This document shows, piece after piece, positions 16,087 to 34,162 of a DNA stretch of 64,000 nt (position 1 is the first letter of the stretch; each line of letters begins with the position of its first letter). A model generated the notes under the pieces. The model was not told the DNA's origin. It saw nothing but the letters and a program-made list of their open reading frames with translations, and searched no databases. A program made the position numbers and the translations under genes. This DNA is from Escherichia coli (GTDB taxonomy: Bacteria > Pseudomonadota > Gammaproteobacteria > Enterobacterales > Enterobacteriaceae): assembly GCF_003018235.1 (NCBI RefSeq), contig NZ_CP027439.1. One strand, 5' to 3'.

Positions 16087-16521
16087 ATGGAAAATATGAT
16101 GAAAACTATGCGTGAGTATTTCCCCACGCGAACAGTAGTGTTCGAACAGTCTCTGGATATGTTTGGTATCACCCGGGGTAAGGATGGGAAGCTCATATTT
16201 CCCCGTCATTCTGATAACCGTTTCCCGATCGGGCGTATCCGCAAACGTCTGGCAGCTTATGGCTGGCGCGGAGAACGTCTGAATCAGGAAGTAGCGCGTA
16301 TCGTCGCGGGTCCTGGTGTTCTTCCTGAAAGAAATGATTACAGCATATTTTTTCCTTACGGATGGGAACGTAACCAGCTTACCCCTGAGATGCGGAGAAT
16401 GTTTCCCCGGAAGACTGGTCGCCGCGTGCTGCTTATGCTGGATGAGCTCCATTATATTCATGACGCCGGGGAGCGTAAGTCGTTTTCACCAGAAAGTAAT
16501 GAAGCACCCGAGGTATCATGA
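16087..16521 (+). CDS. Hypothetical protein, translationally coupled to the downstream recombinase
   Basis: ATG at 16087 preceded by CAGGAG; stop overlaps recombinase start (ATGA). Confidence 0.6.
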   Translation: MENMMKTMREYFPTRTVVFEQSLDMFGITRGKDGKLIFPRHSDNRFPIGRIRKRLAAYGWRGERLNQEVARIVAGPGVLPERNDYSIFFPYGWERNQLTPEMRRMFPRKTGRRVLLMLDELHYIHDAGERKSFSPESNEAPEVS

Positions 16522-17300
16522 ATTACCCTTCTCTTCCCGGACAGGCCTACGCCCCGGAAAAAGTGCATCTACCTATGGCCATCGATTACCCGGCAGCGCT
16601 GGCCCTGCGTCAGATGGCAATCGTCCAGGACGAACTGCCGAAATACCTGCTGGCCCCGGAAGTGAGCGCCCTGCTGCATTATGTCCCCGATTTGCACCGC
16701 AAGATGCTGCTGGCCACGTTGTGGAATACCGGTGCGCGCATTAACGAAGCGCTGGCCCTGACCCGGAGTGATTTTTCGCTGGTGCCACCCTACCCGTTTG
16801 TGCAACTGGCCACGCTGAAACAGCGGGCGGAAAAAGCGGCCAGAACAGCAGGAAGAACGCCTGCCGGCAGCCAGGCGCATCGCTTGGTACCGCTGTCAGA
16901 TAAACAGTACGTCAGCCAGCTGGAGATGATGGTGGCCACGCTGAAAATTCCCCTCGAACGCAGGAATAAACGTACTGGCAGAACAGAGAAAGCACGCATC
17001 TGGGAAATTACCGACCGCACGGTCCGTACCTGGCTCAGCGAAGCGGTTGAAGCGGCAGCGGCTGACGGGGTGACGTTCTCCGTGCCGGTGACACCGCATA
17101 CATTCCGTCACAGCTATGCCATGCACATGTTGTACAACGGTATTCCGCTGAAAGTGCTGCAGAGCCTGATGGGACACAAGTCAGTCAGTTCGACAGAGGT
17201 GTACACGAAGGTGTTTGCACTGGACGTAGCTGCGCGACATCGGGTGCAGTTCCTGATGCCCAGTGATGATGCTGTGGCTATGCTCAGGGGAAACACCTAA
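16518..17300 (+). CDS. Tyrosine site-specific recombinase (phage-integrase family, plasmid resolvase-like)
   Basis: 260 aa; catalytic residues in GARINEALAL, HTFRHSYAMHML and GHKSVSSTEVYTKV. Confidence 0.85.
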   Translation: MNYPSLPGQAYAPEKVHLPMAIDYPAALALRQMAIVQDELPKYLLAPEVSALLHYVPDLHRKMLLATLWNTGARINEALALTRSDFSLVPPYPFVQLATLKQRAEKAARTAGRTPAGSQAHRLVPLSDKQYVSQLEMMVATLKIPLERRNKRTGRTEKARIWEITDRTVRTWLSEAVEAAAADGVTFSVPVTPHTFRHSYAMHMLYNGIPLKVLQSLMGHKSVSSTEVYTKVFALDVAARHRVQFLMPSDDAVAMLRGNT

Positions 17301-17430
17301 GTGGTAAAACAACTGAAGATTACTCCAGTGTGGTCACTTAGCGATTGAGGCTAAGTTCCAGAGTGGTGGCGTTCAGTTATACCCAAGTGTGACAGGCTGA
17401 CGCGCCCGTCGGGCTTGTCCAACCCTTCGC

Positions 17431-17455
17431 CTGCTCAGATCCAAGATCTGAACAG
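17431..17455. promoter_or_regulatory. Candidate recombinase core site (imperfect palindrome)
   Basis: CTGCTCAGATCCAAGATCTGAACAG: 9-11-bp inverted arms around a short spacer, ~130 bp downstream of the recombinase stop. Confidence 0.3.
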
Positions 17456-17615
17456 ACTCACGGTTTGCGCGGTGGGTCAACAAAATTAAATACGATCACC
17501 AGAAATATTTTCTGGACACTTTTTCCGATAGTGCCGAATTGTCCAGGTTGGAAAGCATTTTTTGTGCGTTGTTGAAGGGCCGCGACGAGTGGAGCAAGGT
17601 GACAAAAATAATGCT

Positions 17616-17639
17616 GGACAGAAAAACCTGAACGTCCAA
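17616..17639 (+). repeat. Conserved inter-cassette site, copy 1
   Basis: GGACAGAAAAACCTGAACGTCCAA; consensus GGACAGAATAACCTGAATGTCCAG. Confidence 0.7.
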
Positions 17640-18129
17640 TATGGGGAAAGGATTACGTGACGGGGCGGGTTTGCTAGCAGTTCTGCGAACGTACCAGCGC
17701 ATCGAGGACTGGTAATGCCAGCAGGCTATTACGTCCGGGCTGGAAAATCGAGAGTTGCGATGATGACGAGGCAAGGGGATCGCAGACATTAACCTCTGCA
17801 ATAGAATATCTATTGCGTGATTTATTATAAATGTTATCCCTTTATTGTTTTCCAATTATCCCCGCAGTTGAAGAAATCAGCACTGAATAAAATTTTCAAA
17901 ATTTTATTCATGATGCTTACAAATAAATTAATGTAGATGAATCATCGGGATAGACTATTCTACATCAACTGCATTCTTAATTTTACGTCAAAATCAAGCG
18001 TTGCACTAAAATAAATCCTTACTAGAATAGCTATCCAGAAGAATCACCATGTATTCTTCAGTCTGACCCTCGGGCGCAGATTCTTGTTGTATTAAAATAT
18101 TGGGAAAATAAATCAGGAGTGAAAATGCA

Positions 18130-18441
18130 GTGACAGAGACACGTTACACAACGTCTGAAAGCAAAAAAGCCCTGAATAATCAGAGCTTTATTACTGGATT
18201 GGAAATGACGGCCATCAAATCCAATTCAAAACACACCAAAGGCATGTCCTCAAGTGATGAAGATAATAGAAAACTATTCAATCTACGTCAACCGAATGCC
18301 TGCGGTAACAATCCCAAAGCCGTTATCGGAGGTACGATTATGTTGCCATTGCTCAACACGTTCATGAATGCCCCTCTTCTGAGTCAGGGGGCTACTATCC
18401 TGTTTCTTGGGCTTCTTATCCTTGCGCTCAAGAACCAGTGA
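18130..18441 (+). CDS. Small protein with C-terminal transmembrane tail (family A)
   Basis: C-terminal hydrophobic stretch IMLPLLNTFMNAPLLSQGATILFLGLLILAL; shares FNLRQ...GG...LL.Q pattern with 19121..19450; start codon uncertain. Confidence 0.5.
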   Translation: MTETRYTTSESKKALNNQSFITGLEMTAIKSNSKHTKGMSSSDEDNRKLFNLRQPNACGNNPKAVIGGTIMLPLLNTFMNAPLLSQGATILFLGLLILALKNQ

Positions 18442-18476
18442 TCGCACTGAGCTGGCTTCGGCCAGCTTCTTTACTT

Positions 18477-18500
18477 GGATAGAATCACCTGAACGTCCAG
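18477..18500 (+). repeat. Conserved inter-cassette site, copy 2
   Basis: GGATAGAATCACCTGAACGTCCAG, 36 bp after stop of 18130..18441. Confidence 0.7.
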
Positions 18501-18595
18501 TCGGGCGCTAATTTATAATAAATGACCGTAGAAGGGCCATTTCTACGGCAAAGTTCTGGAGATGATAAAATAAGGGCCTTAAACAATAAAAGGGC

Positions 18596-19003
18596 TTGCT
18601 TATGACACTGGACCAACTGCTTGAAATCCACGACTGCGCTGGGCTGAGCACCTATGAACAGGAAACAATTATATCTTTCATTAACCAGCGGCGAGGTGAC
18701 TTTGGTGTAAAAGCGTTTCCGGAAATTATGCCTCCAGTATCTTGCGGCTGGATCTCCAGAAGAACAAAACAACGTTCTCAGGAGCAGGCAGACGAAAATA
18801 GCTGGAATTATTATAAACAGAAGATTCAGGAATGGATAACGCTAATCGAATTGCATGAGGCATCACTTACTAGGGGGGAAAAGCTAAAGCGCTTTGTGGG
18901 AAAGCATAAATGGTGGTTAGGAGGCACTTGCGCAGTTATCGCATCAATTACAAGCACTGTGATAGCTAGCTGGATTCTTTCGTTATGGACTTGGGCTAAC
19001 TGA
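18596..19003 (+). CDS. Small protein with C-terminal transmembrane segment
   Basis: 135-aa ORF; C-terminal WWLGGTCAVIASITSTVIASWILSLW. Confidence 0.5.
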   Translation: MLMTLDQLLEIHDCAGLSTYEQETIISFINQRRGDFGVKAFPEIMPPVSCGWISRRTKQRSQEQADENSWNYYKQKIQEWITLIELHEASLTRGEKLKRFVGKHKWWLGGTCAVIASITSTVIASWILSLWTWAN

Positions 19004-19005
19004 CG

Positions 19006-19030
19006 TGACAGAAGCTGCGTTACGTCCAAG
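19006..19030 (+). repeat. Conserved inter-cassette site, degenerate copy
   Basis: GTGACAGAAGCTGCGTTACGTCCAAG directly after stop of 18596..19003. Confidence 0.5.
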
Positions 19031-19120
19031 TTGATAAAAAGTTGTTATCCACAGAGAACAGGGCGGTCATCCGGCGGGTTCAATAATATGATATTATTAC
19101 AGCACCTTAAAAAATAAGGA

Positions 19121-19450
19121 TTGCGGACGGATGATATATTGATAAAGGATACTCATGCGTGTAAAACGCAAAATACCCTGAGTAATCAGGGTATTAAACG
19201 CGGAAAAGTAAAGGTTGAGCGCTTTACATTTTCCATTCACACCAGAGGCGTGACTAAATCTAAAATTGATTCTACGGCAACGTTCAATCTACGTCAAATC
19301 GCCAATGGTTTTCCTGTTATGAAAATTACCGGAGGCTTCATGTTGTTAACCATCATCGACACCTATCTTCATGCTTCATTACTGACACAGATACTGGTAA
19401 TCCCGTTTATCTGTGCGGTGGTGTGGGCGGTAAAGAAAATCCGGGTATAA
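19121..19450 (+). CDS. Small protein with C-terminal transmembrane tail (family A paralog)
   Basis: ATFNLRQIANGFPVMKITGGFMLLTIIDTYLHASLLTQILVIPFICAVVWAV parallels the C-terminus of 18130..18441. Confidence 0.5.
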   Translation: MRTDDILIKDTHACKTQNTLSNQGIKRGKVKVERFTFSIHTRGVTKSKIDSTATFNLRQIANGFPVMKITGGFMLLTIIDTYLHASLLTQILVIPFICAVVWAVKKIRV

Positions 19451-19504
19451 CTTAAACATGGCTGGCTGAGAGGCCAGCCATGTTCAGTGAGTTTTGTTTC
19501 GAAT

Positions 19505-19529
19505 GGACAGAATAACCTGAATGTCCAAG
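19505..19529 (+). repeat. Conserved inter-cassette site, copy 3
   Basis: GGACAGAATAACCTGAATGTCCAAG. Confidence 0.7.
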
Positions 19530-19645
19530 TTTGCAAGGAATTGTGATCGTACTACAACCAGTGTCAACCTTCCTATAATGCAGATAATCTTCTATAATTT
19601 CTTTTAATTCTGTGGCGATGTCATTAAGGAAAAGAGGTATTATTT

Positions 19646-19903
19646 ATGGGAAATAAACACATCAGCGCCAGTGAAGCTAAAAAGATTAGTTCTTCAGTGA
19701 TACCTGATGCAGACAAAACACTTGATATGATATTTGGAGGAATAAAGCTCCAAGCAAGATTGGGCCAGACATCCTTTATTTATCCTGTCCATGAAAACAT
19801 TCTTGAGCAAGTGGTCAAGGTTCTAAGGGAATCTGGTTATAGGATTAACTCATCGAAGGCTAATGAGAATAACAAATTTATTATTGAAATTAGCTGGCAG
19901 TGA
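19646..19903 (+). CDS. Hypothetical small soluble protein
   Basis: 85-aa ORF with GAGG-like RBS (aaaagaggtattatttATG). Confidence 0.5.
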   Translation: MGNKHISASEAKKISSSVIPDADKTLDMIFGGIKLQARLGQTSFIYPVHENILEQVVKVLRESGYRINSSKANENNKFIIEISWQ

Positions 19904-19962
19904 AATAGAATCCGCTTTGTCTTTATTTTACCCTTGAAGCCACCCATTAGTGTGGCTTTTTT

Positions 19963-19986
19963 TGACAAGATTACCTGAATGTCCAG
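19963..19986 (+). repeat. Conserved inter-cassette site, copy 4
   Basis: GACAAGATTACCTGAATGTCCAGG. Confidence 0.7.
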
Positions 19987-19998
19987 GTAACGCGGGGA

Positions 19999-20445
19999 TT
20001 AATGAGAAGAATAGGTAGTTGGTATATTTAGCTTGAGTCCAATCTCCTTTATGAGATTGTAGGTATTTTCCTTACTGTTGCCAGCAAGTATTGAGGTGAT
20101 CTCATTAAGGTTTTGTGCTGCACCAAGAACTTCACCCTTTGATGGTACAAACTTCATACCTAAATAGCTTCTTTTTAGGCTACCAGGCAAGGCTGCATAC
20201 TTTGCCATTAACTGAGAAGCAGCATCTTTCAAATCGTGGATGGTTTCATGATTAGCTCTGAAATTTGTGATCGTCGCTTGCTCACGTAATAAAAGCGCTG
20301 TAATCCTCCCTAATTGTTCTCTGAATGATATATAAGGCTCAATGAATCTTTTTGCGATGAGTTGACCAACAACAAAAACGGTTACGCCGGTCAGAACAGT
20401 TACGGCAGCAGACGAACTCATAATTGTACCTAGTGACTGAATCAT
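19999..20445 (-). CDS. Hypothetical protein with N-terminal transmembrane helix
   Basis: 148 aa; N-terminal AAVTVLTGVTVFVVGQLIA; divergent from 20563..21042. Confidence 0.5.
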   Translation of the reverse strand: MIQSLGTIMSSSAAVTVLTGVTVFVVGQLIAKRFIEPYISFREQLGRITALLLREQATITNFRANHETIHDLKDAASQLMAKYAALPGSLKRSYLGMKFVPSKGEVLGAAQNLNEITSILAGNSKENTYNLIKEIGLKLNIPTTYSSH

Positions 20446-20483
20446 GGGGGTTATCCTATCTGGAGGGCAACAGCCTGTCTACT

Positions 20484-20507
20484 GTACAGAAAATGCTGTA
20501 TGTCCAG
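20484..20507 (+). repeat. Conserved inter-cassette site, divergent copy 5
   Basis: GTACAGAAAATGCTGTATGTCCAG between the divergent ORFs. Confidence 0.5.
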
Positions 20508-20562
20508 TCTGTGCTGGAATTATAATGGCAACCATGATCATCACAGGAAGAACGAGTAACAG

Positions 20563-21042
20563 ATGGCAACTGCGTGGGTGGATGTGGCTGATAATGCCGT
20601 AAAAATAGGTTTGGGGTCGTTGTTGACTATTTTAGGGGGGTGGCTGACTCTTAAGCTAACACAAAAGCACGAATTAAAAAAAGAAGCGGCAGTACAGGGA
20701 TTAAAAGATAAAGAAATAAAAACCAAACGATATGTGGAGTTTCTGACCTTGTCTCAATCTCTCATGCAAAAATATTTATATGAGCAGTGTGAAGCAAATA
20801 ACGATGATTATCTTGCCTATCTTCGCATACATAATGAGATAACGATCACGTCAGGTTTAGCCATAAGGAAAGCAGCATTTAAACTCCAGTTTGATGTTTC
20901 TACTTTCATTTTCTACAACAAAATACACGACACAGAACTCATTAATGCACTGAGGGATAAGGCTAGAAATTCTGTTTCCATGTTTCAGGCCATTGTGAAT
21001 GAGGAAATCTGCAACGGAAAGTTTGGCACAGCAAGCCAGTAG
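20563..21042 (+). CDS. Hypothetical protein with N-terminal transmembrane helix
   Basis: 159 aa; N-terminal IGLGSLLTILGGWLTLKL. Confidence 0.5.
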   Translation: MATAWVDVADNAVKIGLGSLLTILGGWLTLKLTQKHELKKEAAVQGLKDKEIKTKRYVEFLTLSQSLMQKYLYEQCEANNDDYLAYLRIHNEITITSGLAIRKAAFKLQFDVSTFIFYNKIHDTELINALRDKARNSVSMFQAIVNEEICNGKFGTASQ

Positions 21043-21046
21043 CGCT

Positions 21047-21071
21047 GGGCAGAATAACCTGAATGTTTAAC
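21047..21071 (+). repeat. Conserved inter-cassette site, copy 6
   Basis: GGGCAGAATAACCTGAATGTTTAAC, 4 bp after stop. Confidence 0.6.
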
Positions 21072-21299
21072 TGCCGGAGGAATTAACCGAGGGGCGTGAA
21101 AAGGCCGCTTACGCGGCCTCAGTTTTCTCTTGAACTCCTGAAGTCTATGTAGTCGATAAACTCAAGAATATAGTAGGCAATCACGCCTGTACCTACATAG
21201 ATAGCTCCGAATATCAGTGACTCACTCATTGAAGTGTACTCCTGAATAACACTCTATTGCACATAGCCGCAAGCCAGATCCCTCGCATCCAGTATAACC

Positions 21300-21490
21300 G
21301 GACTTACTCCACTGCAGTTTCAGAAACAACTACGTCTACAGGAAGCCAGACGATTGATGTTACGAGGTTCAGATGCCAGTATTGCCGGGTACAACGTTGG
21401 ATATGAAAGCACAAGTCAGTTCTCCCGGGAATATAGACGTTACTTCGGCTATCCCCCCAAAAAGGACATTGCACGATTACGCGAAACATA
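21300..21490 (+). pseudogene. AraC-family regulator, C-terminal HTH fragment only
   Basis: Translation ...[30 protein letters not shown] matches the second HTH of AraC/XylS proteins; no upstream body. Confidence 0.6.
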
Positions 21491-21529
21491 AACATCTTTG
21501 ACATTCGCGACGTCCGACCAGCCGAACAG

Positions 21530-21554
21530 GATAGAACACCCTGAACATCTCGGC
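21530..21554 (+). repeat. Conserved inter-cassette site, copy 7
   Basis: GGATAGAACACCCTGAACATCTCGG. Confidence 0.5.
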
Positions 21555-21653
21555 TGACTGTGCTTTCATTTTTAGTCGGTTAAGCAGACGCTTTTCTGTA
21601 ATTTCTTTCAGTTCAATGTAGCTGATACTTAACTTTTTGAAATAACTAATATT

Positions 21654-21941
21654 TCACCTCATTCGTTCGCTGGCAAGATTATAAACATCACTACGTTCAC
21701 GTTTCCCTACAGCAACAACAGCGATAACTAATTGATCATCAATCACCTGATAAACCAGGCGGAAGCCAGACGCACGAAGTTTAATTTTGTAGCAATCCTT
21801 TATCCCACGCAGTTTTGCTGATGGGATATGTGGATTTTCACTGCACTTCTTTAGCTTTTTAGCAAACTGCTGCTGAATTGCCTTATCCAGTTTTTGCCAT
21901 TCTTTCAGTGCATCTTCCCTGAATCTGACTGTGTAAGTCAT
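21654..21941 (-). CDS. RelE/StbE-family type II toxin
   Basis: 95 aa; ...CYKIKLRASGFRLVYQVIDDQLVIAVVAVGKRERSDVY resembles plasmid StbE/RelE. Confidence 0.85.
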   Translation of the reverse strand: MTYTVRFREDALKEWQKLDKAIQQQFAKKLKKCSENPHIPSAKLRGIKDCYKIKLRASGFRLVYQVIDDQLVIAVVAVGKRERSDVYNLASERMR

Positions 21942-22189
21942 AGGTAGCTATCCAGATCTACATCGTGCAGCTTCTGGTTGCTGCGTTCGGCGACCAGATT
22001 AACCAGTTCCTGATCGTCTAGGGCATCGAGCATCTTTTCATACAGTTCTGCGGGGACACAGTAAAAGGCGGGCTGGTTACGGTTCAGAATCGCGACTGGG
22101 TAACCATCACCGGCACTGACTGTCGCCATCGGGTTTTTTTTCAGTTCGCTGACACTGGCGCTAGTGTCACTCAGAATAATGTGGGGCAT
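21938..22189 (-). CDS. Phd/YefM/StbD-family antitoxin
   Basis: 83 aa, overlaps toxin start by 4 bp; classic antitoxin-toxin order. Confidence 0.8.
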   Translation of the reverse strand: MPHIILSDTSASVSELKKNPMATVSAGDGYPVAILNRNQPAFYCVPAELYEKMLDALDDQELVNLVAERSNQKLHDVDLDSYL

Positions 22190-22271
22190 AGGGCACCTTT
22201 AGAGACTATTTAACAGGTCTTTATAGTGTTCTAAAAAAGACCTCTTAACAAGTCTTTTTGTCATTTTACTC

Positions 22272-22316
22272 AATGTGCCGTAAAGCCCCGCCCTTCAGGG
22301 CGAGGAGGATGTCAAA
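22272..22316 (+). repeat. 45-bp direct repeat with hairpin, copy 1 (second copy at 26028..26072)
   Basis: AATGTGCCGTAAAGCCCCGCCCTTCAGGGCGAGGAGGATGTCAAA. Confidence 0.7.
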
Positions 22317-22412
22317 TAATAGGACCCCGAAAGGATTAGTAATGTGGCGTCTTTGCTACACAGGTGCTTTTGTAATATGTTGTATAGCGTACTCACTACA
22401 CAGGAGATGTGT

Positions 22413-22952
22413 ATGGCATTGTCACAGATCAGCGTTCGTATTGATGATGAACTCAAACAACGCACGGATGAAAAAATGAAACTGCTGAGAACCAACCCCA
22501 CGCAGGCCATTACGTTGCTCTATCAGTATATTGCTGAAAATGGGAAACTTCCCTTTACTGTCAGCACCCAACTCTTCACTTCAGAGGATTACACCCAAAA
22601 ATTAATCACCACAGTCAGATCTATTTATGAATACTGGCGCGCGCTTTCTGAGACATCAGCAACAACCAGAACGAAAAGTGGAATGGCCTATTCAATGGCA
22701 ATGGCAGCACATGTTTCGAAGCTGCACAGCGATCTGATACACAACTGCGGCACCTTGAGTGGTGAAGAAGTTGCCTCATTAATGATTGTTATGGAGGACA
22801 TTCTTTCTACGCCGCCATCTTTTTATCGCGGAGAAGCGCCCGATCAGGTGTTTCAGGATAAATTAAACGCTGCTGACCAAACTATTCTGATGATTGAAAA
22901 ATGTCATGGTATGAATGTTCAACGCGGGGAAAATTTTTACGCTCTCAGATGA
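22413..22952 (+). CDS. DinJ/RelB-like ribbon-helix-helix N-terminus with ~130-aa C-terminal extension
   Basis: N-terminal MALSQISVRIDDELKQRTDEKMKLLRTNPTQAITLLYQYIAENGKLPF resembles DinJ antitoxins; C-terminal domain unrecognised. Confidence 0.5.
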   Translation: MALSQISVRIDDELKQRTDEKMKLLRTNPTQAITLLYQYIAENGKLPFTVSTQLFTSEDYTQKLITTVRSIYEYWRALSETSATTRTKSGMAYSMAMAAHVSKLHSDLIHNCGTLSGEEVASLMIVMEDILSTPPSFYRGEAPDQVFQDKLNAADQTILMIEKCHGMNVQRGENFYALR

Positions 22953-27349: not shown

Positions 27350-27771
27350 CAGCGTACCTCACGCGTCTTGTGTATGAATGCCGTCACTACCCCGAAAATC
27401 TGCAGATCTTCCGGATAGAGGGTGGGGTAGGCTGGATTCATCGGCAGCAGGGCAATACGGGGCTTAAGCTGCAGGCGTTTGACAGTAAACTCGCCGTCAA
27501 TTTCAGCAATAACGATGTCCCCCTGCAGTGGTTTTTCAGCTTTATCGACCACCATCAGATCACCGGAGTGCAACCCCATATTCTGCATCGAATCACCTAT
27601 GGCCCGGACAAAGAAAGTTGCAGCCGGACGTCGGATACAGTAGGCATTCAGATCCAGTTCGTCTTCGGTGTAGTCTGCGGCCGGTGACGGAAAACCTGCT
27701 GGGCAACGTTCGGTGAAAAGTGGTGCGGTAGATAGTTCTGGTTCAGGTGCCGCTGGAACAAAAAGGATCAT
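27349..27771 (-). CDS. umuD: UmuD/MucA-type protein (LexA-like self-cleaving peptidase)
   Basis: GFPSPAADY and GDSM...K motifs; start MILFVPAAP; stop overlaps umuC start. Confidence 0.85.
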
Positions 27772-27901: not shown

Positions 27902-27974
27902 GAACCGGTGCATAACCCTGTGAGTTGATATCCGCTCTGCTCTGAAGGACAGGGTTTTTCGGCGGATTAGGTAA

Positions 27975-28220
27975 AGTCTACTGTATGCGACATTTTGATT
28001 TAGTTTTTTCCACTGGCTAGATCCAATAAATATATCCATATAGACCCTTAGAGATCCTAGAAGATCCCCGATCGCTGCAGGCCGCTCCGTTACTGGTCTC
28101 ATAGATGATTAATGTCTACTGTGTGCTACATAATGTCTATTGTATGCGACATAATATCTATTGAGTGCTACAAAAGGTCTACTATGTGCTACCATAAGGT
28201 CTACTGTGAGCTACTAAGAT
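27975..28220. repeat. RepFIB-type upstream iteron cluster
   Basis: Repeated ~21-bp units TCTACTGTGTGCTACATAA / TCTATTGTATGCGACATAA / TCTATTGAGTGCTACAAAA / TCTACTATGTGCTACCATAA / TCTACTGTGAGCTACTAAG plus nearby GATC sites. Confidence 0.8.
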
Positions 28221-28251: not shown

Positions 28252-29139
28252 ATGTCTAATAAAATCAATGAACAATTCCTGAATATCAAGGAAATTAACA
28301 AGCGAACGGGAGAAGAGCTCACGCTTATATCCACAAGTGAGTCCAGTGTTCAGGTAGTTCCGTTGATGCGCCTTGGTGTTTTTGTCCCGACTCTTAAAGG
28401 GACCGATAAAGCTAAAATTACCCGCAATACCGTTGATGCTTCGAAAGATTTTAATACGCTTTCGCTCTACAGCTCTGAGGGATTCGAGAAGGTCATTATT
28501 AGTGGTCCCCGACTTGATATGGACACTGATTTTAAAGTTTGGGTTGGCATAATTTCCGTTCTGACAGACAGTGATCATCCGATCACCAAAGAAGGAAAAA
28601 TCGTGATACCTTTCAGCGAATTTGCGCATCGCTGCGGATTCCCACGGGGGAGGATGAAACAGGAACTTCGCACTCGCCTGAAAGACTCGATAAAGAAGAT
28701 TATGTCCACAATTGTCGAATTTTCGAAAGACTCCGGGAAACCAACAGAGAAGACGCAGATGGTGCAACTCATGGGGGAGTCCACAATAGACATTGGTAAT
28801 GATCTTGTTCTGCTTACACCCAGTATGTCTTTAAAAGATCTTTACGCCAGTGAGTATAAAGTCCTGCTCAAGCTAAAAGCGCTAAAAAGCCTGGCTCGTA
28901 AGGAGTCTGCTCAGGCTCTGTATCTCTATTTGGAAGGTCTGCCCACAAATCCTGCTCCAGTTAGTATTAAGCGTTTTCGCGAACGTCTCAACCTTACATC
29001 CAGAACTGCACTGCAGAATGCCACCATTAAGAAAGCTCTAAAGCAGCTGGAAGAAATTGGTTATCTGGAATATCAGGAAATGAGGAGTGGCAGGGACATC
29101 GCGTTTAATATCATCAAACGTAATCCGAAGCTTCAGTAA
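28252..29139 (+). CDS. repA: Replication initiator RepA of a RepFIB-type (iteron) replicon
   Basis: 295 aa; PVALMRLGVFVP-like N-terminus, ITGPRLDMDTDFKVW and NPKL C-terminus match RepFIB RepA. Confidence 0.85.
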   Translation: MSNKINEQFLNIKEINKRTGEELTLISTSESSVQVVPLMRLGVFVPTLKGTDKAKITRNTVDASKDFNTLSLYSSEGFEKVIISGPRLDMDTDFKVWVGIISVLTDSDHPITKEGKIVIPFSEFAHRCGFPRGRMKQELRTRLKDSIKKIMSTIVEFSKDSGKPTEKTQMVQLMGESTIDIGNDLVLLTPSMSLKDLYASEYKVLLKLKALKSLARKESAQALYLYLEGLPTNPAPVSIKRFRERLNLTSRTALQNATIKKALKQLEEIGYLEYQEMRSGRDIAFNIIKRNPKLQ

Positions 29140-29245
29140 GCTACTGTATGCTACATATTGTCCCATTATCTTGAGCGATAACTCCCAAAGTATTCATCTC
29201 GCTGTTATGAGACATTTGTTAATAGCATACAGTAGACATTTCAGT
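29140..29245. repeat. Downstream iterons of the replicon
   Basis: GCTACTGTATGCTACATATTG and inverted ATAGCATACAGTAGACATTTC after repA. Confidence 0.6.
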
Positions 29246-33879: not shown

Positions 33880-34060
33880 TGACTCCGGGCAGGCGGGAGG
33901 ACAAATGCCCGTCTGCCCGCGCCGGGAAAAGACCGCGCGCCGGTGGCGCTGAAAGGGGCCGCGCTCACGCGCCGCCCCTTACATTACGCGGACATTCTGC
34001 TGTGGGCTTCTGTCTTTTCAGACCTGTCATTTGTCTGTTACTGATGATGTTGTTGTTCCT

Positions 34061-34108
34061 GCTACTGCTACTGCTACTGCTACTGCTACTGCTACTGCTA
34101 CTGCTACT
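34061..34108. repeat. Hexanucleotide tandem repeat (GCTACT)x8
   Basis: Eight perfect tandem copies read directly, followed by a CT-rich tract. Confidence 0.9.
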
Positions 34109-34162
34109 GTTCTTCTTTTTTCTGCTGTTCTGATTACTGCCTGTTTTGTTGTTCTCCTGCTT

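Follow-up and report, generated by a model that had tools for sequence, protein, structure and literature searches.

Two divergently transcribed open reading frames (ORFs), here called A and B, raise the question of whether they form one system or are neighbours that arrived separately. They lie in a 64,000-nucleotide stretch of Escherichia coli DNA (contig NZ_CP027439.1), referred to as the window, which belongs to an F-like plasmid with RepFIB iterons and rep at 28.1–29.1 kb, parAB, umuDC-like genes, and a tra region. The original prediction proposed that the two ORFs, sharing an architecture and flanking a divergent copy of an array site, could be a two-component module. We lean towards a different reading: A and B are neighbouring, independent single-gene cassettes in a plasmid array, and each encodes a stand-alone, membrane-anchored exclusion or defence protein. 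The independent-cassette architecture is quite probable, and an exclusion or abortive-infection (Abi) type role of each protein at the inner membrane is a tentative proposal.

Occurrence of A and B together and apart

The coordinates, the divergent layout, and the 117-bp spacer were confirmed. The original prediction had named a lack of coding signatures, or of co-occurrence elsewhere, as findings that would speak against it. Compared with diverged homologues, the ratio of nonsynonymous to synonymous substitution rates (dN/dS) was 0.10–0.34 for ORF A and 0.09–0.18 for ORF B, and many columns were conserved in both family alignments; judged by this substitution pattern, A and B are genuine genes under purifying selection. 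Homologues of A formed 26 clusters at 90% identity in a single-sequence search and 84 in a profile search, and those of B formed 59 clusters at 90% identity and 239 at 50% identity (1.84 billion representatives searched). Comparison of the two profiles with hhalign gave a probability of 0.3%, so no homology between A and B was detectable. Scans of A, B, and their neighbours with Pfam, NCBIfam, and PADLOC yielded nothing useful, and PADLOC-DB 2.0 gave no match at E ≤ 1 for A, B, or two neighbouring ORFs.

The two genes do co-occur elsewhere: the pair was found in 17 plasmid records of the window type and in 193 of the pECOS88 type, the latter over at least 80% of the pair length. The module proposal therefore held in one part, in that the pair recurs in divergent orientation around a spacer with the shared site, but its obligate form was not supported, given the mixed alleles and solo occurrences. 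Plasmid records with A numbered 344 and those with B 658. In the pECOS88-type (ColV-type) plasmids, B was 98.7% identical to that of the window, whereas the adjoining A allele was only 57% identical. A Pantoea contig carried a window-like A adjoining a B of a different clade, and the gene order in a Salmonella plasmid was B, an 84-aa gene, and A. All 18 viral contigs with A were without B and all nine with B were without A, so none of the 27 carried both. Neither obligate co-occurrence nor co-variation of partner alleles, as looked for in two-gene toxin-antitoxin (TA) or defence systems, was found.

The solo copies occupied varied places. A alone was found between gpA and the portal gene of a Klebsiella P2-like prophage, that is, in the gpA-gpQ hotspot, which has been shown to hold anti-phage systems (PMC9122126). 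It was also found as an opposite-strand moron in the nin region of a lambdoid prophage, between humD and phd/doc of the phage-plasmid D6, and as a 590-bp cassette flanked by Vibrio cholerae repeats (VCR/attC) in the superintegron of V. cholerae chromosome 2. B on its own was seen in P2-like prophages, where it lies between gpV and gpS on the opposite strand, in IncX1/IncHI2 plasmids, where it is upstream of an OLD/GajA-like ATPase, and in an Erwinia chromosome, beside an HNH nuclease.

The spacer site and its six-copy array

The original prediction had placed a divergent array-site copy at 20484–20507. This site is real; it spans 20482–20507, ends at the same position, and scored 22.6 bits with a weight matrix built from 23 distinct site copies of other replicons, with the spacer type left out. 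Applied to the 64-kb window, the matrix found exactly six sites, all on the + strand, between 17614 and 21070. The next best position in the window reached 6.5 bits, and 50 random windows peaked at 17.3 bits. The array meant by the original prediction is presumably this six-copy array.

The site consensus is a 26-bp imperfect inverted repeat, CTGGACAGAATnACCTG(A/T)A(C/T)GTCCAG (short form CTGGACAGAATnACCTGAAyGTCCAG). To the right of the site, 49 of the 69 distinct flanks carried G at +9 and +10, with (A/G)A(A/T)TAA coming next; this motif occurred in 42% of the right flanks and in 0–3% of controls. The whole is a directional element of about 42 bp, composed of the 26-bp repeat and, 8–10 bp further, GGAATTA. 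When site copies were compared, mutations in one arm of the repeat were not compensated in the other, which makes a selected hairpin at the site unlikely. Rfam covariance models run over 17000–22300 gave only two sub-threshold matches at chance level.

Three of the six sites come after terminator-like hairpins, and a unit composed of the site, GGAATTAA..GAGGGGCGT, and a hairpin recurs in many arrays. At 21071–21119 of the window, an "empty" unit consists of the site, GGAATTAA(A/C)CGAGGGGCGT, and a GC-rich terminator hairpin; such units close or punctuate many arrays and may represent a minimal cassette or the array terminus. A second inverted repeat with the same arms and a 21-nt spacer (CTGGACA CTTTTTCCGATAGTGCCGAAT TGTCCAG) lies at 17512–17546, between a ResD-like recombinase gene and site 1. 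In a pKpQIL-like Klebsiella plasmid (L075) it is conserved in the corresponding place, downstream of the homologous recombinase, and it could be a separate "primary" site. At 21527–21552 there is also a site-like sequence, which is very degenerate (4.6 bits).

A by-eye comparison with patterns of the LexA box, CRP/FNR, sigma-54, Xer/dif, Tus/Ter, and hix-like sites showed that none fits the site. Searches of open-access full text turned up no description of the site sequence or of the element, and the sole sequence match in the literature was a coincidental PCR primer.

Cassette boundaries and distribution of the site

Synteny breakpoints, as read from aligned plasmid sequences, fall at the sites. 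The A+B block common to IncX4 plasmids aligns from 19971 to 21066 and ends inside sites 4 and 6, and B-only matches start at 20482–20486, which is the beginning of site 5. The left arm of site 5 differs according to the cassette on its left (CTGTAC, CTGGAC, TTGGAC, or CTGAGC), while its centre and right arm, AAAATGCTGTATGTCCAG (AGAAAATGCTGTATGTCCAG in the arm comparison), travel with B.

Site elements were found in IncX1, IncX4, IncFIB (pECOS88, the E. coli S88 plasmid), IncHI2, Salmonella, pKpQIL-like, and pMT1 plasmids, and in Pantoea, Cedecea, Hafnia, and Erwinia contigs. Near-consensus sites were present in at least 1,100 plasmid records, all from Enterobacterales; the matches outside Enterobacterales in a genome scan were singletons, about as many as expected by chance. 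Within any one locus the sites were always co-oriented. Among 48 distinct cassettes whose ORF has 50 aa or more, the ORF direction relative to the site was split 24 to 24, so the site cannot be just a promoter element placed upstream. The orientation of any given cassette is constant: A always runs antiparallel to the sites, and B and the 85-aa gene next to A always run parallel. A Pantoea gossypiicola contig (L070, 11281–12140) holds both A and B as pseudogenes, in the same divergent layout and within a five-site array.

The other intervals of the window array contain a small hydrophobic ORF region, a 135-aa phrog_34759 protein with a second small hydrophobic ORF, and the 85-aa ORF, which accompanies A in six array-bearing loci. 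A decayed site at 19004 separates the phrog_34759 gene from the second small hydrophobic ORF. The cargo of neighbouring cassettes comprised Abi_2, a DpnII/MboI-like nuclease domain, DUF2971, HEPN (a weak match), ParE/Phd, and HigB. One cassette protein labelled "malate dehydrogenase" (L001, 9686–10480; L005, 2623–3501) is a DpnII/MboI-like endonuclease-domain protein (Pfam E 3e-50). The coordinates of the sites and of the other features are collected in Table 1.

Table 1. Positions of the two genes, the spacer elements, the sites, and neighbouring features in the window
Feature	Position	Strand	Remarks
ORF A	19999..20445	-	148 aa as called, probably 140 aa from ATG at 20421
ORF B	20563..21042	+	159 aa
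Divergent spacer	20446..20562		117 bp; core 100% conserved across IncFIB, IncX1, and IncX4 plasmids
Predicted sigma-70 promoter of A	20453..20481	-	TAGACA (-35, 20481-20476), 17 nt, TAGGAT (-10, 20458-20453)
Likely -10 of B	20521..20526	+	TATAAT, 14 nt after site 5; read from sequence, conserved in B-only loci
Palindrome in B leader	20534..20541		ATGATCAT; conserved
Site 1	17614..17639	+	41.8 bits; first of array
Site 2	18475..18500	+	32.2 bits
Site 3	19503..19528	+	43.1 bits
Site 4	19961..19986	+	22.6 bits; bounds 3' end of A cassette, 12 nt from A stop codon
Site 5 (divergent copy)	20482..20507	+	CTGTACAGAAAATGCTGTATGTCCAG, 22.6 bits; between the two promoters
Site 6	21045..21070	+	29.9 bits; bounds B cassette, starts 3 nt past B stop codon
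Terminator-like hairpin	21102..21119	+	after site 6
85-aa ORF, neighbouring cassette	19646..19903	+	accompanies A in 6 array-bearing loci
ResD-like tyrosine recombinase	16518..17300	+	260 aa; 314 bp upstream of site 1

Predicted promoters and leader in the spacer

The promoter predicted for A is conserved upstream of A in A-only plasmids. For B, the -10 hexamer reads TATACT in most homologues, and no good -35 partner was found for the perfect -10 of the window; transcription of B is predicted to begin near 20533. Site 5 abuts the predicted -35 hexamer of A, with the likely -10 of B 14 nt downstream of it, so anything binding it would be expected to affect both promoters. Most plasmid-borne homologues keep the palindrome ATGATCAT in the B leader; the P2-prophage copies, whose upstream region differs (TTTACA…TACAAT), do not have it.

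The true start of A is probably Met9 (ATG at 20421), eight codons downstream of the start called at 20445, as judged from two sequence features. The predicted promoter would start transcription near 20446, and diverged homologues without the upstream ATG keep a TAGGT Shine-Dalgarno sequence and an ATGAGT/MSSS start.

Predicted structure and topology of the two proteins

The architecture claimed for both proteins, an N-terminal helix followed by a helical domain, agreed with AlphaFold2 models and hydropathy, with the hydrophobic segment of B being borderline. The model of A (mean predicted local distance difference test score, pLDDT, 85.1) shows a long N-terminal helix running into a four-helix bundle, and its hydropathy profile has a single clear hydrophobic segment at residues 13–31 (Kyte-Doolittle value, KD, 2.06). 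Its conserved motifs are IEPY after the transmembrane (TM) segment and an IPTTY tail at the C-terminus. A is a full-length match to phrog_7512 (E 2.3e-46, residues 9–147 against profile positions 1–141 of 141), a family with no function assigned whose sole phage record is the phage-plasmid D6.

The model of B (pLDDT 82.1) shows an N-terminal helix running into a four-helix bundle, and the single hydrophobic segment covers residues 12–30 (KD 1.54). The N-terminal tail and hydrophobic helix are strongly conserved (W.V.D.AVKIGLG) and are followed by a basic stretch and then the bundle. B is one branch of a larger family, in which many proteins of about 180 aa share only the first 50 or so residues: W.V.D.AVKIGLG, the hydrophobic helix, and the basic stretch, followed by divergent helical domains. 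No member of this larger family was found in Pfam. The frequent RefSeq name "peptidase M14" for B was rejected, as no Pfam or NCBIfam model, including zinc carboxypeptidase, matched at E ≤ 1; a 159-aa protein with a TM helix, a helical bundle, and no domain match indicates that the name is an annotation artefact. In the E. coli plasmid p573-5 (L001, 8996–9442), B is frameshifted by a 1-nt loss at a G-run (window TTAGGGGGGTGGCTG vs. TTAGGGGGGGGCTG), and RefSeq therefore annotates only a 97-aa remnant.

In both proteins the hydrophobic segment is followed by net positive charge, which by the positive-inside rule suggests an N-out, C-in topology. On these models the bundles would be cytoplasmic, with the single N-terminal helix in the inner membrane. 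Fold searches with A and B returned only generic four-helix bundles, and a search against viral models gave no significant match. The four-helix sensor domains of TorS, NarX, and 4HB_MCP are periplasmic and lie between two TM helices, whereas B has one TM helix and a bundle placed in the cytoplasm by charge; sequence identity to such sensor domains of histidine kinases and chemoreceptors was 5–12%. The four-helix-bundle fold is too common to imply shared ancestry with these proteins.

The recombinase next to the array

The 260-aa tyrosine recombinase upstream of site 1 is presumably ResD-like, a name that rests on the ccdA-ccdB-int synteny, which we take to match the order in the F plasmid. 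It adjoins the arrays in the window, in pKpQIL-like plasmids, and in IncX4 plasmids, and the IncX1 arrays adjoin a serine resolvase instead. As the cognate enzyme of the site it was rejected because co-occurrence fails: six sampled homologues (85–93% identity) had no site within 3 kb, and the recombinase is present in more than 5,000 plasmid records, compared with at least 1,100 that have near-consensus sites.

Interpretation and alternatives

If A and B are independent cassettes, exchange at the 42-bp elements, homologous or site-specific, would shuffle cassettes among IncF, IncX, IncHI2, and other Enterobacterales replicons and would yield loci with A alone, with B alone, or with mixed alleles. 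If a one-site circle integrated into a resident site, the result would be co-oriented arrays like those seen, with cassette genes in either orientation. Alternatively, the site would be a repeated operator whose 26–42 bp of identity lets homologous recombination shuffle the modules; the sites may be either recombination sites or such an operator. Each protein would act alone as a phage-exclusion or Abi-type protein, for example by interfering with membrane events during infection. A factor bound at the shared site 5 could regulate both A and B, and this is the sole link between the two that we consider likely. Several findings weigh against independent cassettes with a defence role. B adjoins A in about 60% of A-bearing plasmids, and the adjacency recurs in three lineages, including the Pantoea contig, which came to light independently, by way of the site. 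Cassette ORFs run in the two directions equally often (24 to 24), and the hydrophobic segment of B is only borderline by Kyte-Doolittle (1.54). No homology links A or B to defence, as Pfam, NCBIfam, and PADLOC are blank and the folds matched are generic ones. A degree of coupling between A and B, functional or regulatory, is thus conceivable.

A stronger form of coupling, a true two-component module in which A and B are a membrane toxin and its antagonist, or a sensor and an effector assembled through their TM helices, co-regulated from the spacer, is unlikely. It would account for the conservation of the divergent layout with its 117-bp spacer across about 210 plasmids and a Pantoea contig, for the similar architectures, and for the one conserved site between two promoters. 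However, each gene is abundant without the other, including in prophage hotspots and an integron cassette, and the viral contigs carry single genes throughout (18 of 18 and nine of nine). The alleles are mixed without co-variation, A and B share no sequence homology, and each gene has separate flanking sites. Less improbable than the module, while still unlikely, is that A and B are plasmid-selfish membrane proteins unrelated to phage, serving entry or surface exclusion, modulation of membrane stress, or post-segregational killing as by the small type I toxins of nearby cassettes. The predicted membrane anchoring, the presence of dinQ/dqlB type I toxins and of type II TA pairs among the neighbours, and the carriage of both genes mostly on conjugative plasmids agree with this, but both genes also occur in prophages and A in a chromosomal integron, settings in which excluding or addicting to a plasmid would serve little purpose. 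Neither A nor B has a conserved cognate antitoxin gene beside it, and at 140–160 aa they are much larger than type I toxins. It is highly improbable that the spacer site is a divergent RepFIB iteron tying the pair to replication control. The spacer does share the 10-mer GTCTACTGTA with the iterons at 27973–28216, but its best position on an iteron weight matrix scored 8.4 bits (rank 23 of 127,960), compared with 27–32 bits for real iterons, and positions unrelated to the spacer scored higher. IncX1 and IncX4 plasmids, whose initiator differs, also have an identical spacer, and the TGTCTA part of GTCTACTGTA is the predicted -35 of A. The iterons were likewise rejected as the array of the original prediction, since 8.4 bits is at noise level.

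The independent-cassette reading can be extended further, to an as yet unrecognised cassette-exchange platform of Enterobacterales plasmids that would recombine at the 26-bp sites together with GGAATTA, with A and B as new anti-phage effectors, each a single membrane-anchored protein. We regard this extension as doubtful. If true, such a platform would parallel integrons functionally while being mechanistically distinct, and would stockpile single-gene defence, TA, and exclusion cassettes and exchange them among IncF, IncX, IncHI2, and related replicons.

Comparison with known systems

The array resembles integrons, pdif modules, and CUP or operator repeats but fails the defining features of each. 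Like integron arrays, it consists of tightly packed, mostly single-gene units with co-oriented, imperfect inverted-repeat sites and cargo rich in TA and defence genes, and a homologue of A is itself a cassette of the V. cholerae superintegron. One preprint reports that integron cassettes encode anti-phage systems (bioRxiv 10.1101/2024.07.02.601686). Integron attC sites are 57–141 bp long with R''/L''/L'/R' boxes and a GTTRRRY core, whereas the present site has 26 bp (about 42 with the extension). The GTTRRRY core is absent from it; the only GTT stretch (reverse complement GTTCAGG) does not fit. No IntI was found, as the adjacent 260-aa recombinase scored 63 bits against a cut-off of 265 for integrase_gron. 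Unlike integron cassettes, those of the array have their own promoters and point either way (24 to 24).

The pdif/Xer modules of Acinetobacter plasmids are small, often carry TA or resistance genes, and are bounded by short recombination sites in varied plasmid contexts. Their sites are 28 bp long, have XerC and XerD arms, and alternate in orientation, whereas the sites described here are all co-oriented and do not resemble dif. The CUP repeats of the IncN plasmid pKM101 and the IncP/IncW operators are repeated promoters or operators before several accessory genes, and recombination between the repeats rearranges the region. They are replicon-specific and tied to a known regulator (ArdK, KorA, or KorB); in contrast, the present site is common to IncF, IncX, IncHI2, pMT1-like, and Pantoea/Erwinia replicons and has no conserved adjoining regulator. 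The exclusion proteins of the P2 hotspots (old, tin, and the systems of PMC9122126) are small stand-alone gpA-gpQ cargo, and the Klebsiella homologue of A lies exactly there, but none of the tested systems is similar to A or B in sequence or shares a specific fold with them.

As a pair, A and B are an unremarkable case of two uncharacterised cargo genes lying side by side; the array and the two protein families, taken as candidates for defence, are of more interest. If the cassette reading is true, the locus would represent not a new two-gene system but an array that moves small accessory genes among the plasmid families that dominate clinically in E. coli, Klebsiella, and Salmonella, and it would account for the mosaic regions of "hypothetical protein" genes in IncX and IncF plasmids. 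The 26-bp site would then be a sequence handle for harvesting candidate single-gene defence or exclusion proteins, A and B included. Although family members occur in P2 hotspots, lambdoid prophages, and a Vibrio integron, neither family is represented in Pfam or in the PADLOC catalogue searched. Both proteins are cheap candidates for phage-challenge assays.

Other features of the window

Two ORFs of the array (18130–18441 and 19121–19450) end in very hydrophobic tails of about 30 aa (…ATILFLGLLILALKNQ and …ILVIPFICAVVWAVKKIRV). In related plasmids the same cassettes carry the type I toxins dinQ/dqlB. Neither the DinQ nor the DqlB peptide is encoded in the window, and the two ORFs may encode other small membrane toxins. 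Beyond the array are a ParE/Phd-type TA pair and a 202-aa protein with an N-terminal RelB-like domain (21654–22189 and 22344–22952). RepFIB-type iterons flank rep (28252–29139) on both sides: five tandem 21-bp units at about 28110–28216, a solitary upstream copy at 27973, and weaker outliers at 27628–27648, 29136–29156, and 29220–29240. A perfect hexanucleotide repeat, CTGCTA in 8.5 copies, is located at 34059–34109 and reads as poly-Leu in one frame.

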